Positions 56,001-62,705 of a DNA stretch of 64,000 bases are shown piece after piece. The position numbers and the translations under genes were made by a program. This DNA comes from Candidatus Dojkabacteria bacterium (GTDB lineage Bacteria; Patescibacteriota; Dojkabacteria; SC72). Every line of letters starts with the position of its first letter. Within the stretch, counting starts at the first letter, position 1. The notes beneath the pieces are model-generated. The model did not search any database, was not told the DNA's origin, and saw only the letters and a program-made list of their open reading frames with translations. The DNA is taken from contig JACPFP010000003.1 of NCBI GenBank assembly GCA_016182915.1, positions 86,788 through 150,787 on the forward strand. Direction: 5' to 3'.

Positions 56001-56036
56001 TAAAAAAGGGAGCTTTAATAGCTCCCTTTTCTTTTA
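56001..56036. terminator. Bidirectional intrinsic terminator between convergent genes
   Basis: 9-bp stem AAGGGAGCT/AGCTCCCTT with 5-nt loop, flanked by A6 upstream and TTCTTTT downstream. Confidence 0.65.
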
Positions 56037-57550: not shown

Positions 57551-57613
57551 TTATTTTTCCTTTTCTATACGGGTTGCCAAATCAAAACATGGACTATATA
57601 ATGCTATAGATAT

Positions 57614-57685
57614 TCCGCGGTAGCTCAATGGTGGAGCGGCTCGCTGTTAACGAGTAGGTTGAAGGTTCGAGTCCTTCCCGCGGAG
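57614..57685 (+). tRNA. tRNA-Asn(GTT)
   Basis: Anticodon loop CUGUUAA; acceptor TCCGCGG/CCGCGGA; G discriminator. Confidence 0.9.
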
Positions 57686-57694
57686 TAGTTATTT

Positions 57695-58192
57695 TCATTC
57701 TGTCTTAAGAACCTTTTTTAATACTTCTGAAGTGGAAGACATGTTCATAGCATCTATTTGAAGAAATTCAATGCCTAGTTCTTCGGCTATCTTCTTCTTT
57801 CTGAAAACATATTTATCCTTTACTGTAACAGTTAACAGGAATGTTGGTTGCAATTTTCTCCAAATCTCGGTATGTATTAAAATGGCTTCTTTACTTGCAA
57901 AATCATAAATATCATCCACTCGGAAAATATAATCTATAGATTTCAACTCGTTCAACTGCTCCGCCCTATCCACAAACGTGTTTATTGGTCTTCCAACTCC
58001 TTTTGATAACTCAATAGATTTGTCATTTTCTAGCCCAATAAAAAGAATATCGACTTTATTTTTAGCTTCTTTGAAAAACTTAATATGACCAATATGAAGA
58101 ATATCAAAGCAACCAGTAATTAAGCCAACTTTCTTACCTTCTTTCCTATACTCTTTACTTAAATTGCATGCTTTTTGAAGTTTGATAATCAC
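57695..58192 (-). CDS. Cytidylyltransferase-like nucleotidyltransferase (HIGH motif; TagD/RfaE-II-like)
   Basis: GCFDILHIGH motif. Confidence 0.6.
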   Translation of the reverse strand: MIIKLQKACNLSKEYRKEGKKVGLITGCFDILHIGHIKFFKEAKNKVDILFIGLENDKSIELSKGVGRPINTFVDRAEQLNELKSIDYIFRVDDIYDFASKEAILIHTEIWRKLQPTFLLTVTVKDKYVFRKKKIAEELGIEFLQIDAMNMSSTSEVLKKVLKTE

Positions 58193-58300
58193 TGACTATA
58201 ATTATAGCTCAAAATTCAATAGTCTGCTAACTAAAGTCCAATCTACTTCAAAGTTAAACTTCAGGTTAAGGAATATGTCATATACGGGGAGCCATATCTT

Positions 58301-58987
58301 CTATGAAACTTTTGTTCCCTCAACCAAAAGGGTGTCACAATAAAACATATAAGGAGGATTTGCTTCTTTCGTATCATCAACGACACTGTCTCCATCAGTA
58401 TATTTCATATTGAAATTCGGAAATGCATTATTTAGCATTTTAATTGCAGTTTCTTTTGTGTACATAGGTTCTTCACCAAAAACTAATCTTTGTCCTTCTC
58501 TATCAATTCTTTTTATATTAATTGAGAATTCAATAGCTATTTTCCCTCCAACTCTTAATATTCTTGATATTTCAGTAGCCATCACGTTGAAGATCATTTC
58601 TGGAAAAAGGTATAACGTACCCGAATTAAACACCCCATCGTAGCTATTTGAGTCTAATGGAAATGATTTTACTAGATTAAAAACTTTTAACTCCAATTTT
58701 CTTTGCAGATTGACCGGAGTATTTGCAAATAATTTATCTAACGCTCCTTGATCTATATCAACATCAAGAACATTATCTGCAGTATTTGCTATTAAATTAT
58801 TATATCTTCCGTCTCCAGCAGCTAAGTTTACCCAGCTTGTACCCTTTTTTACAACCCGCTTTAGAAAATCTACTGTTGCCGTATCCTCTTTTCCCCATAT
58901 TGAACTTTTTGAGGTTTTAGAATAATCAATACCTTCTGAGAATACAAATTCCTTTTCATTTGCAGGAACTGGTTTGGCTTTTGGCAT
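58301..58987 (-). CDS. Class I SAM-dependent methyltransferase
   Basis: VNLAAGDGRY motif I. Confidence 0.6.
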   Translation of the reverse strand: MPKAKPVPANEKEFVFSEGIDYSKTSKSSIWGKEDTATVDFLKRVVKKGTSWVNLAAGDGRYNNLIANTADNVLDVDIDQGALDKLFANTPVNLQRKLELKVFNLVKSFPLDSNSYDGVFNSGTLYLFPEMIFNVMATEISRILRVGGKIAIEFSINIKRIDREGQRLVFGEEPMYTKETAIKMLNNAFPNFNMKYTDGDSVVDDTKEANPPYMFYCDTLLVEGTKVS

Positions 58988-59140
58988 TTTTTGTAAAACT
59001 AAAGTTATGATTAATTATACAACAACATCTGGTAATTGACTTAGTTGATTGTAAATCAGCCTTAAAGTTAAGAAGTATATAGTATTGTAGCATTACTTCT
59101 TCTTTCATCATCTAGCTATAAATTAGTGATATAATTTCGC

Positions 59141-59554
59141 ATGATAAAAATATCAAAAGCAACAAGGAAAGATGACTTAAATAAAGAATGGAAAGAGTTC
59201 TCACATTTAAAATATGGTCAAGGGGCCAATTGGATTGAAAAGATCTACAGATTTAAGGCGGTAGAAGATGGGAAGATATTAGGCACAATAGAAGGTAAGT
59301 ATGAGCCAGGAGTTATATATATTTCAGCCCTAATGGTAACAGAAAACGCTCGTGGGAAAGGTATTGGAAGAATGCTAATTGAAAAAACAGAAAAGTGGGG
59401 AAAGACTCTAGGTGCTCATAGAACATGGTTAAGCACAGGAGCCAATTGGTCTAATCGTTCATTTTACGAAAAGCTAGGATTCAAAGTGATTGCGAACTTC
59501 TCCGATTTCTATTTTCATAAAGACTTTGTAATTTACAGCCGTTTAATAAAATAA
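59141..59554 (+). CDS. GNAT-family N-acetyltransferase
   Basis: RGKGIGRML motif A; TATAAT ends 6 nt before the ATG. Confidence 0.75.
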   Translation: MIKISKATRKDDLNKEWKEFSHLKYGQGANWIEKIYRFKAVEDGKILGTIEGKYEPGVIYISALMVTENARGKGIGRMLIEKTEKWGKTLGAHRTWLSTGANWSNRSFYEKLGFKVIANFSDFYFHKDFVIYSRLIK

Positions 59555-59577
59555 AATATTATTTAACTATTCCACAT

Positions 59578-59958
59578 ATGAAAACAATATTAGTAGATGC
59601 AGTTGGAACATTTGTAGTAGATATGAAGATAAATGAAGAGATGCATAAACTCCTTGAACAGTATCCAAATAGAAAGATAATCTTAACCAATGCAAATGAT
59701 GAACAGTTAGCTACTTTTGGATTAGTAAACATGCCATATGATATGTTCACCCTTAAGCATAACCCAGACAAAACGGATCCAAAGTATTTCGAAGCTATGT
59801 TAAGTAACTTTAACCTAACTCCTGAGGATGTAATATACTTTGAACATAGCCAGGAAGCAGTAGATAGTGCGAAATCAGTGGGTATTACATCATACTTCTA
59901 TGACGCAGAAAAGAAGGATTTAGAATCATTGAAGACCTTCCTAGATAGCAACTGCTAA
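59578..59958 (+). CDS. small HAD-like hydrolase fold protein
   Basis: ILVDAVGTF N-terminal DxxG-like motif; 126 aa. Confidence 0.4.
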   Translation: MKTILVDAVGTFVVDMKINEEMHKLLEQYPNRKIILTNANDEQLATFGLVNMPYDMFTLKHNPDKTDPKYFEAMLSNFNLTPEDVIYFEHSQEAVDSAKSVGITSYFYDAEKKDLESLKTFLDSNC

Positions 59959-59980
59959 AACAATAGGAGTATAATCGGGT

Positions 59981-60451
59981 ATGAATAAGCCCAGATTCTC
60001 AATTACACATAAAGATCCTCAGTTGTTGAAACTAATCTCTGAAACTGAGCAAAAAATACTTGCTATCTGGGCAATTGAGTGTGCAGAACGAGTTCTGCCA
60101 TACTTTGAAAATATGTTTCCACAAGACAAACGACCTAGAAATGCACTAGAAACCCTTCAAACATGGATTGAGACTGGAGAGTTTAAGATGTCAGTTATAC
60201 GTAAAGCCTCACTAGATTCTCACCGTGCAGCACGTGAAGTTGGAGATGATAACCCCGCTCGCTCTGCGGCAAGAGCTGCTGGACAGGCTGTAGCGACAGC
60301 GCATGTCCCTAGACACGCCTACGGACCTGCAATTTATGCCCAACAAGCTATATTCAGAGCCTCACCTCCTGAAGAGGCTGAGAAGAGGGCATCTAAAGAA
60401 AGAGATTGGCAATATAATAGATTAGTGAAATTAAGAAGTCGGATTAACTAA
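59981..60451 (+). CDS. hypothetical protein resembling an Imm5-type putative immunity protein family (from memory; unverified); locally higher GC
   Basis: AIWAIECAERVLPYFE...RPRNALETLQTWIETGE pattern. Confidence 0.35.
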   Translation: MNKPRFSITHKDPQLLKLISETEQKILAIWAIECAERVLPYFENMFPQDKRPRNALETLQTWIETGEFKMSVIRKASLDSHRAAREVGDDNPARSAARAAGQAVATAHVPRHAYGPAIYAQQAIFRASPPEEAEKRASKERDWQYNRLVKLRSRIN

Positions 60452-60513
60452 ATATATATTCACTTTATTTATAGTATTGCTATAATCAAAAGTTTAATAC
60501 TAAAAAATTTCAT

Positions 60514-61026
60514 ATGGAAGATACAATTAAGCTAGTAGGTATAAAGGATCTACAAGCAGTCTACAAACTTGTAAGAGCATCTGCAGAATGGATAAAAAAA
60601 GAATATGGGTATACACATTGGGAAGAATATTACACTTACGAGAAAGTTGAACAAAATTTCAAAAAAGGTGATGTTTACGGCTTATATATTGGGAACAGAT
60701 TGCTTGCAACATTTAGCGTAGGGTATAAGTACCCCGTTTACTATGCGGAAGAAGATTTAGCCCATTTTGAGGATCCCAAAGCACAAGCCTACTACCTAAC
60801 AACTTTATGCGTATCTCCACAACATCATGGGAAAGGATATGCAAAGTCCCTTATAAAACACTTAGAGAAGTTAGCCCTAGAAAAAGGCGTTAAATATATC
60901 AGGTTTGACGCTAAGGGTGAATATACAGAACTAATAGAGTTCTATAAAAGACTGGATTACAAAATCGTAGGTGAGTTACTTGACGAAGGTGAAATTTACT
61001 ACCTATTTGAAAAGAAGATGATATAG
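60514..61026 (+). CDS. GNAT-family N-acetyltransferase
   Basis: QHHGKGYAKSLI motif A. Confidence 0.75.
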   Translation: MEDTIKLVGIKDLQAVYKLVRASAEWIKKEYGYTHWEEYYTYEKVEQNFKKGDVYGLYIGNRLLATFSVGYKYPVYYAEEDLAHFEDPKAQAYYLTTLCVSPQHHGKGYAKSLIKHLEKLALEKGVKYIRFDAKGEYTELIEFYKRLDYKIVGELLDEGEIYYLFEKKMI

Positions 61027-61043
61027 TAAATGGATAATACTAC

Positions 61044-61469
61044 CTACCCTCTTGAATTACAGTAGTATTCTATGGCCTCACTGAAAAACGGTGATAAACC
61101 TACCTTCACTTTATCTATATTCTTCGTAAACCTAACATCCATAACATAACCCTGTCCTAACCCCCTTAGTATTTCTAGTGTACAGTTATAGAAACTATCC
61201 GAAATATAATCCCTCCACTCTTGTACAAGAGCCTGTACTTCAGGATCAGAGGGCTCCCTGTCCATTAGCTCAGAAAGCTTTTTAAGTATCTTGGAACCTC
61301 TCTCTAATATCTCTTTTAACTCCTCTTTTGAATATTTCGAGGTTCTTTCATGACTCTCTTTATACGCATCAGAATAACCAAACCTATTGAAAGTTTCTTC
61401 CTGGTACTTCTCCTGATGTTCAACTGGATCTAATTCCTCTTTTTCTTTATATTCGTCTAATATGTTCAT
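61044..61469 (-). CDS. TipAS-like antibiotic-recognition domain protein (stand-alone)
   Basis: WRDYISDSFYNCTLEILRGLGQGYV pattern. Confidence 0.5.
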   Translation of the reverse strand: MNILDEYKEKEELDPVEHQEKYQEETFNRFGYSDAYKESHERTSKYSKEELKEILERGSKILKKLSELMDREPSDPEVQALVQEWRDYISDSFYNCTLEILRGLGQGYVMDVRFTKNIDKVKVGLSPFFSEAIEYYCNSRG

Positions 61470-61566
61470 AGCATATCAATACCAAAATACAGATATTAAT
61501 TCAACTTAATATGCTTAAGCACTAGAGGATATTGACAAAGTTTGAAGAATATTTTAATTATTAATT

Positions 61567-61681
61567 GGAGTCATTTAGCGACTAATCTTGCTAGTTAACG
61601 TGGGATGAGTTTAGCAAGTACAGGCACTGTGAGCAATTATATTGTCCGTGCATTCCCTGTCAGCTACGTGGCTCCACTTTT
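61567..61681 (+). ncRNA. Candidate structured RNA, copy 1 (115 nt; P1 GGAGUCA/UGGCUCC; P2; P3; terminal U-tract)
   Basis: TTGACA-17-TAATTA promoter ends 6 nt before the 5' G; paralogous to 62250-62364 with compensatory changes in P2. Confidence 0.5.
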
Positions 61682-61684
61682 CGT

Positions 61685-62146
61685 CTAATCCTTTGCTATA
61701 TTTACTCTCCCTCCATTGAAGTATGCAACATATACTTCCCTATTATCAATGTATATTCTTTCTATTTGCCTAAACTCTTCTATGGTTCCCTCACACTCAT
61801 TCGTATACTTCATATTACCTTCTACATACTCCATTGGTCCTCTATGAACTAAATCACCGTCAGGACCTTTTGAAAGTGCTGATTTTAGAAAAGCATAGAT
61901 ATCTGCTCCTCCTATAACCTTTCCCCAATATACACATCTAAAAATATCCTTACCATCCTCCCAAATAGTCTCATTACCAGAGTATGGTTCCCCACCATAG
62001 AATTCATCCTCATAGGTATAGTTATCAATTTGTAGTTTTAGAACATTTCCATTCTTTCCGTTGCTCTCATACTTTGTATTAGGATCGGTGTATCCTTTAA
62101 GATTAAACTGTAAAAGAAGGGATCTTAGCCTTTGTGCATCAATCAT
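61685..62146 (-). CDS. hypothetical protein (DUF-type, 153 aa)
   Basis: ORF; stop codon 4 nt from RNA copy 1's 3' end. Confidence 0.4.
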   Translation of the reverse strand: MIDAQRLRSLLLQFNLKGYTDPNTKYESNGKNGNVLKLQIDNYTYEDEFYGGEPYSGNETIWEDGKDIFRCVYWGKVIGGADIYAFLKSALSKGPDGDLVHRGPMEYVEGNMKYTNECEGTIEEFRQIERIYIDNREVYVAYFNGGRVNIAKD

Positions 62147-62249
62147 ACAGGTATATGGTTAACTTAATCTTGATACATTATATACCAACTTTAATAGATA
62201 TTTATTATAGGGTGTAGACAGGTATCAAAGAATATAGTATTAATTATTC

Positions 62250-62364
62250 GGAGTCATTTCTAAACAGACCCTACCAGTTAACACGGGATGCGTTTGGTGG
62301 GTACTTACAGTATGAGTGATCATGTTGTATGTCTATTCCCTGTATTATAAATGGCTCCACTTTT
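62250..62364 (+). ncRNA. Candidate structured RNA, copy 2 (115 nt), 17 nt upstream of the ogt-like ATG
   Basis: TAGACA-17-TATTAA promoter; same length and conserved blocks as copy 1. Confidence 0.5.
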
Positions 62365-62381
62365 ATTGATACACCACACTT

Positions 62382-62705
62382 ATGCAAACCTTCATAGAAA
62401 AAATATATTCAATTGCAAGTATGATACCCAAGGGAAAGGTATCTACATATAAACAGCTTGCACAGTTAGCAGGAAACCCAAGAGCATATAGAGCAGTTGG
62501 AAGTGCCATGAGGAAAAATCCCGATACTACAATAGTTCCATGCCATAGAGTGGTTGGAAGTGATGGAAAAATGCACGGATATTCAGGAGGAGAAGGTATT
62601 GAAACAAAGATTATTAAACTTCGTAACGAAGGCGTTAAGGTTGTAAACGGAAAAGTTAATCTAGATACTTTTCTTTGGAATAAAGCTCCAGAAAAAAGCC
62701 TTTAA
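62382..62705 (+). CDS. ogt: Methylated-DNA-protein-cysteine methyltransferase (Ogt/MGMT) DNA-binding/active-site domain protein
   Basis: PCHRVV active-site motif; 107 aa (C-terminal domain only). Confidence 0.75.
   Translation: MQTFIEKIYSIASMIPKGKVSTYKQLAQLAGNPRAYRAVGSAMRKNPDTTIVPCHRVVGSDGKMHGYSGGEGIETKIIKLRNEGVKVVNGKVNLDTFLWNKAPEKSL

Follow-up and report, generated by a model that had tools for sequence, protein, structure and literature searches.

Two paralogous copies of a candidate pseudoknotted small RNA in a variable gene island of Candidatus Dojkabacteria

The locus

The window analyzed here is a stretch of 64,000 nucleotides (nt) from a metagenome-assembled genome (MAG) of Candidatus Dojkabacteria (WS6), a member of the Candidate Phyla Radiation (CPR), with a G+C content of 37%. 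On its + strand, two segments of 115 nt, at 61567-61681 (copy 1) and 62250-62364 (copy 2), are predicted to be paralogous genes for a structured RNA. The copies are of equal length and align without gaps, with 79 of 115 positions identical (69%), and they have in common the blocks GGAGUCAUUU, AGUUAAC..GGGAUG.GUUU, AUUCCCUGU and UGGCUCCACUUUU. Copy 1 scores 123.7 bits and copy 2 scores 122.7 bits with a covariance model of the family (R2), and no third copy was found in the window, even with the model filters off.

Two protein genes adjoin the copies, neither of which is part of the RNA. A gene for a DUF5680 protein on the minus strand (61685-62146) lies between the copies, convergent with the first and divergent from the second, and copy 1 ends 3 nt before the end of the DUF5680 stop codon. 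A stand-alone MGMT/Ogt gene on the + strand (62382-62705; 107 amino acids, PF01035) has its ATG 17 nt beyond the end of copy 2. A tRNA-Asn gene (57613-57686) is followed by a series of small accessory genes with the RNA copies at its far end, and the content of this island is different in every relative examined at the syntenic place (L011, L012, L015, L020, L025 and L081). A first-pass annotation of the window had described the two 115-nt segments with their shared blocks, the distance from copy 2 to Ogt, the end of copy 1 beside the stop of the convergent gene and the setting in an accessory island; all of these hold, including the coordinates and lengths of the segments.

The similarity between the copies is not confined to the RNA. 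In the alignment it continues for about 47 nt upstream, across both promoter-like hexamers, and a weaker similarity is found farther upstream, between 61487-61510 and 62145-62168 (repeat family D1). The upstream part of the copy 1 unit (61487-61531) resembles 62145-62214, the stretch 5' of copy 2, and extends in the direction of the divergent minus-strand gene and its start. In all, the similarity between the units spans about 60-100 nt 5' of the RNA, up to the start codon of the divergent minus-strand gene, so that the DUF5680 open reading frame (ORF) is exactly bracketed by two units. This arrangement may represent a duplicated bidirectional promoter region.

A conserved fold and a third family member

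The + strand of the copies was redrawn as a three-way junction with a pseudoknot, built from the helices P1/P1a, P2 and P3. P1 and P1a pair nt 1-16 with nt 93-109, closed by 5' GGAG and 3' CUCC, and in the window copies P1 contains a U5-G wobble. P2 pairs nt 21-27 with nt 46-52 and, past a GUU bulge, continues into an invariant AAC/GUU extension. P3, an irregular hairpin of about 12 pairs, occupies nt 54-83. A pseudoknot of 4 base pairs (bp) joins GGGA in the P2 loop (nt 36-39) to UCCC (nt 88-91) in the P3-to-P1 junction, J3/1.

In the coordinates of the window, P2 of copy 1 pairs 61587-61593 with 61612-61618 around a loop at 61594-61611, and P3 lies at 61620-61649 with a GNRA loop, GCAA, at 61633-61636. 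The 5' arm of its pseudoknot, GGGA, is at 61602-61605 in the P2 loop, and the 3' arm, UCCC, is at 61654-61657 in J3/1, which in this copy reads AUUCCCUGU. In copy 2, P1 pairs 62250-62259 with 62349-62358, P2 pairs 62270-62276 with 62295-62301, P3 lies at 62303-62332 with the GNRA loop GUGA at 62316-62319, and the pseudoknot joins GGGA at 62285-62288 to UCCC at 62337-62340.

All 35 pairs are canonical in both copies (70 cells, 100%), compared with 33-46% in controls in which the 3' partners were slid by 1-3 columns. Six pairs change on both sides, six change on one side and none is disrupted. The first-pass annotation had noted compensatory changes in P2, and three P2 pairs indeed differ on both sides between the copies, with one further pair changed from U-A to U-G.

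A covariance model built from the two copies (R1), a search that the first-pass annotation had proposed, was run over loci fetched around homologues of the neighboring genes. It recovered a third member at 1963-2079 of locus L012, from another Dojkabacteria (WS6) lineage, with 82 bits and E = 6e-19; the identical sequence is also present in L013 and L019. The L012 genome is of the WS6 GW2011_GWF2_39_15 type, and its Ogt is 74% identical to that of the window, while its RNA has 62-64% identity to the window copies. In L012, P1 is changed from GGAGUCAU/(A/G)UGGCUCC to GGAGUUGG/CCAACUCC, several P3 pairs are altered, and the pseudoknot is formed by AGGA with UCCU.

The three distinct sequences, from two lineages, were aligned by fitting to the model. 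Canonical pairs fill 94% of the 117 pair cells and 15 of the 39 pairs change on both sides; 0 of 500 shuffles reach the observed value on any of five measures, and the slid controls are 39-45% paired. All 4 pairs of the pseudoknot form in the three sequences (100%), with the outer pair, 36-93, being G-C in two and A-U in L012, so that an interaction first raised as a possibility can now be seen to covary. The third member thereby adds independent covariation in P1, P3 and the pseudoknot, the kind of compensatory pairing on which the initial structural proposal had been made to depend. A GNRA tetraloop caps P3 in all three sequences (GCAA, GUGA, GUGA). One element of the initial proposal was discarded: a short P3 (ACAG-GCA-CUGU in copy 1 and UACU-UAC-AGUA in copy 2) lies in different registers in the two copies and pairs in 50% of cells across the three homologues, and it has been replaced by the longer hairpin at nt 54-83, which is conserved in all three. 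Unpaired columns are more conserved than paired columns (78% versus 51%, copy 2 versus L012), which is the signature of a functional fold. The comparison thus shows a predicted fold under selection, with stems that vary and covary and with almost no variation in loops and junctions.

The conserved AUG in GGGAUG might also be taken as the start of a small protein gene. Copies 1 and 2 have ORFs of 27 and 20 codons from this shared AUG, with 8 identical residues and 5 synonymous third-position differences. The ORF in L012, however, has 10 codons, so that both length and C-terminus vary. In addition, the ORF does not include the conserved first 39 nt of the RNA, and the substitutions track base-pairing rather than codon structure. 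A small protein is therefore the least probable of the explanations considered here, and was rejected.

The coding strand

The RNA is encoded on the + strand. Read in this direction, 110 of the 117 pair cells are canonical, 11 of them as G-U pairs, whereas the minus-strand reading leaves 99 of 117. The window copies fold with z-scores of -2.6 and -4.1 on the + strand, compared with -0.65 and -2.2 on the minus strand. Both measures agree with an earlier argument from the wobble pairs, among them U5-G in P1. The L012 sequence folds well on both strands because its long P1 is without a wobble.

A structure in the 5' untranslated region of minus-strand transcripts, upstream of TipAS and DUF5680, would account for the similar spacing of the two copies from the start codons of these genes (98 and 104 nt) and for the extension of the duplicated unit to the DUF5680 start codon. 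It could also draw on a strong promoter-like site inside copy 1, which faces TipAS on the minus strand (61663-61636, CTGACA-16-TATAAT, 11 of 12 matches). On that strand, however, the eleven G-U cells turn into A-C mismatches and the folds are weak, and the promoter-like site is not conserved in copy 2. In L012, a + strand gene precedes the element and the locus offers no minus-strand gene for it to serve, and DUF5680 homologues elsewhere are without the element. This explanation is very unlikely and was set aside.

A second reading of the duplicated units would place their function at the level of DNA, as a folded single-strand recombination site of the integron attC type or as a miniature transposable element that brackets a DUF5680 cassette. 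Two direct copies do exactly bracket one ORF in an island of variable small accessory genes, and attC sites are likewise repeated elements of about 60-140 nt that flank such genes and conserve structure more than sequence. The ends of the element, however, are GGAGTCA...TGGCTCC rather than the RYYYAAC...GTTRRRY of attC core sites. Its fold is a branched junction with a covarying pseudoknot, GNRA loops and many G-U pairs on which it depends, unlike a single bulged hairpin, and both strands carry neighboring genes. None of the 20 proteins scanned, which come from 45-64 kb only, has a recombinase domain, and no integrase was seen in the accessory island (57613-62381). At 69% identity with compensatory changes, the copies are also unlike young transposable-element copies. 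A mobile DNA element is hence even less credible than a minus-strand leader, and both forms of it were rejected.

An exact 10-nt direct repeat, TTCGTCTAAT (D8), flanks the copy 1 unit, at 61452-61461 in the first TipAS codons and at 61680-61689 across the RNA tail and the DUF5680 stop. It is the only flanking direct repeat, and its occurrence is at chance frequency for this region of 1.8 kb.

Promoters and the ends of the transcript

Sigma70-like hexamers precede all three members, as judged by their match to the consensus, with the -10 ending 5-6 nt before the first RNA nucleotide, G1. Upstream of copy 1 (61532-61560, + strand), TTGACA at 61532-61537 is followed by a 17-nt spacer and TAATTA at 61555-61560, such that the -10 ends 6 nt before G61567; the promoter scan gives the -35 of this copy with an 18-nt spacer reading. 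Upstream of copy 2 (62215-62243, + strand), TAGACA at 62215-62220 and TATTAA at 62238-62243 are again separated by 17 nt, and the -10 ends 6 nt before G62250. The hexamers, spacers and 6-nt distances given in the first-pass annotation are thus correct, and a like geometry is found in L012 (TTGACT-16-TATTAT, with the -10 ending 6 nt 5' of G1). Such a constant spacing between promoter and RNA start is expected of a stand-alone small RNA gene.

The use of this spacing as a marker for the start site is suggested by the protein genes of the window. A Shine-Dalgarno-like tetramer is found in 4 of 61 ORFs of at least 100 amino acids, and strong -10 boxes lie 5-8 nt before the ATG in 12 of 61 genes, compared with about 1.2 per position elsewhere. 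Examples of a -10 near the ATG are at 59121-59143, 59961-59983 and 62147-62166. This suggests that leaderless mRNAs are widespread in this Dojkabacteria genome. Given the scarcity of Shine-Dalgarno sequences and the -10 boxes 5-8 nt before start codons, a -10 that ends 6 nt upstream would mark the start of transcription, such that the RNA would begin at G1 from a sigma70-type promoter with the same geometry as the leaderless mRNAs.

At the other end, P1 is followed directly by a short U-run, ACUUUU in both window copies, as had been noted before, and AUUUUC in L012. Transcription may end, at least in part, at this U-run immediately after the 3' strand of P1, a prediction held with less confidence than that of the start at G1. 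The transcript would then be essentially the folded domain alone, of about 111-115 nt.

Canonical terminators are rare in this genome, and terminator-like sites are fewer than in shuffled sequence, with 7 found versus 12 expected. The only clear canonical intrinsic terminator in 44-64 kb is at 56004-56030, with an 11-bp stem, AAAAGGGAGCU...AGCUCCCUUUU; it is probably bidirectional, with A and U runs on both sides.

Gene context and distribution

The three members have unrelated downstream contexts: Ogt at +17 nt (copy 2), the stop of the convergent DUF5680 gene at +3 nt (copy 1) and, in L012, a gene for a TasA-family protein with a SipW-type signal peptide at +374 nt. Loci around homologues of each of these genes were compared (Ogt in L011, L015, L020-26 and L075-81; DUF5680 in L063-74; TasA family in L082-85). 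The RNA is absent beside Ogt homologues in seven other lineages, beside DUF5680 homologues in two lookups that returned one recurring context, and beside the TasA homologue in the one context examined. Among all of these loci it occurs only in L012/L013, 8 kb upstream of Ogt. The DUF5680 homologues in other Dojkabacteria are found in a conserved RecO / radical-SAM / NDK neighborhood. Since the homologues of the neighboring genes occur without the RNA, it is not a conserved leader of Ogt, DUF5680 or TasA. Judged from these loci, the RNA behaves as a separate, predicted promoter-plus-RNA unit that is present or absent in variable islands. The first-pass annotation had left the choice between a cis-regulatory RNA and a small RNA; the unrelated contexts and the homologues without the element lean towards the latter and away from the former.

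Ogt itself appears to be provided with its own signals. It follows the preceding gene by 42-49 nt in L011 and L012, and the upstream sequences read in relatives have a -10-like box 6-8 nt before the ATG. The window Ogt retains such a box, GATACA, 8 nt before the ATG, as does that of L012 (GATACT-8-ATG). A similarity after the U-run, AU..AUACA.C.CAC, between copy 2 and L012 was considered as part of the RNA, and is more simply explained as the native Ogt -10 region.

The 374 nt between the RNA and the TasA-family gene in L012 (2080-2452) are without an ORF, which is unusually long for a compact CPR genome. This region does not align with the corresponding region upstream of TasA in L082. A SAM-II match on its minus strand, with 14 bits and E = 7, is at chance level.

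Against this background, the main rival explanation is that the RNA is a cis-acting conditional terminator, a riboswitch-like leader in which P1 and the U-run form the terminator of their own aptamer. A ligand would decide whether the polymerase stops or continues, in copy 2 into Ogt, in copy 1 antisense to DUF5680 and in L012 in the direction of the TasA/SipW operon. The aptamer-like fold, with its invariant junctions and loops, variable stems, pseudoknot and GNRA loop, would suit such a device, as would the U-run directly after P1 in all three members. Two of the three members point at a downstream gene on the same strand, the 17 nt from copy 2 to Ogt are preceded by no strong + strand promoter other than that of the RNA, and the neighborhood is rich in detoxification and resistance-type genes. 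A precedent for an aptamer embedded in a terminator, with the outer helix and a U-run as the terminator, is provided by the HMP-PP (thiS motif) riboswitch (PMC6478431). The thiS motif is small, linked to thiamin genes and equipped with a canonical terminator hairpin, whereas the P1 described here encloses about 100 nt, ends in a run of four U and has no shared downstream gene.

Several observations do not fit a conditional terminator. No same-strand gene lies downstream of copy 1, the three downstream genes are unrelated, and that in L012 is 374 nt away. Ogt homologues in seven lineages and one TasA context are without the element, and Ogt keeps its own -10-like box. A covarying aptamer fold with invariant junction and loop nucleotides, as expected of a riboswitch, is present, but a 5' leader position with a recurring gene function is not seen, which is weak evidence at n = 3, and no conserved alternative pairing that could act as an anti-terminator was found in the three members. 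Finally, the U-run is short and was not called by the terminator scan. A conditional terminator is accordingly only a tentative alternative, more doubtful than a free RNA.

Beyond L012, the family was sought in several collections. The Logan contig L010, found through an exact match to the window Ogt protein, holds both RNA regions at 100% identity and so gives no information on variation. A search with the models of about 540 kb of Dojkabacteria loci and of 36 viral loci gave no further matches beyond the L012-type sequence. The pattern GTTAACNNGGGATGNGTTT-N30-60-TTCCCTG gave one chance match in genome contigs, in an Anaerolineales MAG, and was too strict for the family, given that the L012 member reads AGGAUG and UUCCUU. 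A relaxed pattern returned from metagenome contigs the L012 sequence again (L019) and one chance match in L018, in a collection that is incomplete for this RNA since it missed the RNA-bearing JGI contig L013. Two loop patterns retrieved 8 and 44 loci from viral contigs, of which 0 fit the model, and blastn against plasmids and phages gave chance fragments only. The family would thus seem rare or patchy at the loci sampled, with the pattern scans of the genome and metagenome collections being of limited reach. The RNA genes probably come and go with the variable islands of Dojkabacteria genomes.

Comparison with known RNA families

The lack of a match to a known riboswitch or ribozyme class, noted in the first-pass annotation, was borne out when the copies were compared with Rfam 15 (4227 models, among them all those for riboswitches, ribozymes, SRP, 6S, Y RNA, 5S, tmRNA and RNase P). 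No family overlapped them at the gathering threshold or at E<=10, whether the input was 1 kb, 131 or 143 nt, or the L012 homologue; the only matches at the gathering threshold in the window were tRNAs. ARAGORN located 8 tRNAs elsewhere in the window and no tRNA or tmRNA at 61.5-62.4 kb, and a tRNA-like reading was rejected. No such RNA was found in the literature on RNA motifs of Dojkabacteria, CPR or Patescibacteria. 5S rRNA is similar in size and in the topology of its three-way junction, whereas the RNA described here has a pseudoknot and a 9-nt J3/1; 5S rRNA was rejected given that RF00001 has no match at E<=10 and that the copies differ at 31% of positions. To judge by sequence, the RNA is a previously undescribed structured family, so far found only in Candidatus Dojkabacteria.

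Among known aptamers, the closest likeness in architecture is to SAM-I and SAM-IV. In the SAM-I architecture, reportedly described by Montange and Batey in 2006, a kinked P2 loop pairs with the junction strand. The RNA described here likewise has a multi-helix junction closed by P1, a P2 loop beyond a bulge that forms a 4-bp pseudoknot with the strand leading to P1, invariant loops and junctions with variable stems, and a length of about 100-115 nt. It differs in having no sequence or profile match in Rfam, a bulge of GUU followed by A-U pairs rather than a k-turn, no consistent downstream gene and no separate expression platform.

A different likeness is to Y RNA/YrlA and 6S RNA, which are stand-alone RNAs with paired 5' and 3' ends that act by binding protein rather than by antisense pairing. 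Shared with these are a predicted RNA gene of about 100-120 nt, its own promoter, and a terminal helix formed from both ends and followed by a U-run. Unlike them, the Dojkabacteria RNA is matched by no Rfam model and lies near neither Ro/Rsr nor another evident partner gene. It also has neither a tRNA-like T/D-loop module nor a 6S-type central bubble; instead, it has a pseudoknotted junction core.

The self-cleaving ribozymes offer a third comparison. Weinberg and coworkers are said to have found in 2015 that self-cleaving classes such as twister, pistol and hatchet are scattered and independent of particular genes, with several copies per genome. A new small RNA with self-cleaving or other catalytic activity, spread by variable islands, would be in keeping with the compact pseudoknotted junction and its invariant unpaired nucleotides, with the sporadic distribution and lack of consistent gene association, and with the presence of two copies within 700 nt, all features that recall twister, twister-sister, pistol and hatchet. 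There is, however, no match to an Rfam ribozyme model even at E<=10, and the three sequences yield no candidate cleavage site. A promoter placed exactly at the first P1 base would also be unusual, given that self-cleaving ribozymes normally lie inside longer transcripts. A catalytic RNA is for these reasons unlikely, if less so than the readings rejected above.

Interpretation

In the explanation favored here, a stand-alone, highly structured small RNA of about 111-115 nt is encoded by two paralogous genes, at 61567-61681 and 62250-62364, and has an invariant pseudoknotted core by which it engages a protein or small-molecule partner. We estimate the probability of this explanation at about one half. 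Since the conserved core is a compact, pseudoknotted junction and no linear seed is exposed, the most likely mode of action is that the core binds one specific partner, either a protein or a small ligand. The RNA would act as a free RNA and not as the leader of one particular gene.

A number of points count against this explanation. The gene context points to no partner protein or ligand, and a complex aptamer-like fold is equally typical of riboswitches and ribozymes. The family consists of three distinct sequences from two lineages, and since copy 1 and L012 have an identical P2, independent substitutions are few. The existence of a transcript, like its start site and 3' end, is read from DNA sequence. 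This AT-rich DNA shows no enrichment of promoter-like sites (78 found versus 67 expected), and because such hexamers are common, the evidence lies only in their conserved position in the three diverged members. With a U-run of four U, a P1 that closes a domain of 100 nt and no call from the terminator scan, read-through is likely, from copy 2 into Ogt or from copy 1 antisense to DUF5680.

A more speculative extension, rather doubtful on present evidence, is that the family represents a ligand-sensing or catalytic RNA class specific to the CPR. It could be a gene-less riboswitch, in which the formation of P1 decides between release of the 115-nt RNA and read-through, or a new self-cleaving ribozyme, and in either case promoter and RNA would together form a small portable unit able to move from one variable island to another.

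CPR bacteria account for a large part of bacterial diversity and, to our knowledge, almost nothing is known of their non-coding RNAs. That a genome of well under 1 Mb, with apparently largely leaderless mRNAs, keeps two diverged, promoter-driven copies of a 115-nt RNA suggests a real function. Should the RNA prove to be ligand-binding or self-cleaving, it would represent a new class of riboswitch or ribozyme in an unexplored phylum; if it binds a protein, it would point to a regulatory partner as yet unrecognized. Even for an orphan motif, the alignment and model are a direct handle for a database-wide search.

Other features of the island

The accessory island spans 57613-62381, from tRNA-Asn to Ogt. 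It encodes a cytidylyltransferase, a methyltransferase, two GNAT acetyltransferases, a HAD-like protein, an Imm5-like protein, a stand-alone TipAS domain and DUF5680. Beyond the island, Ogt on the + strand and a convergent gene for an acyltransferase-3 protein on the minus strand overlap at their 3' ends by 45 nt (62661-62705), an overlap that is also found in L011 and L012.

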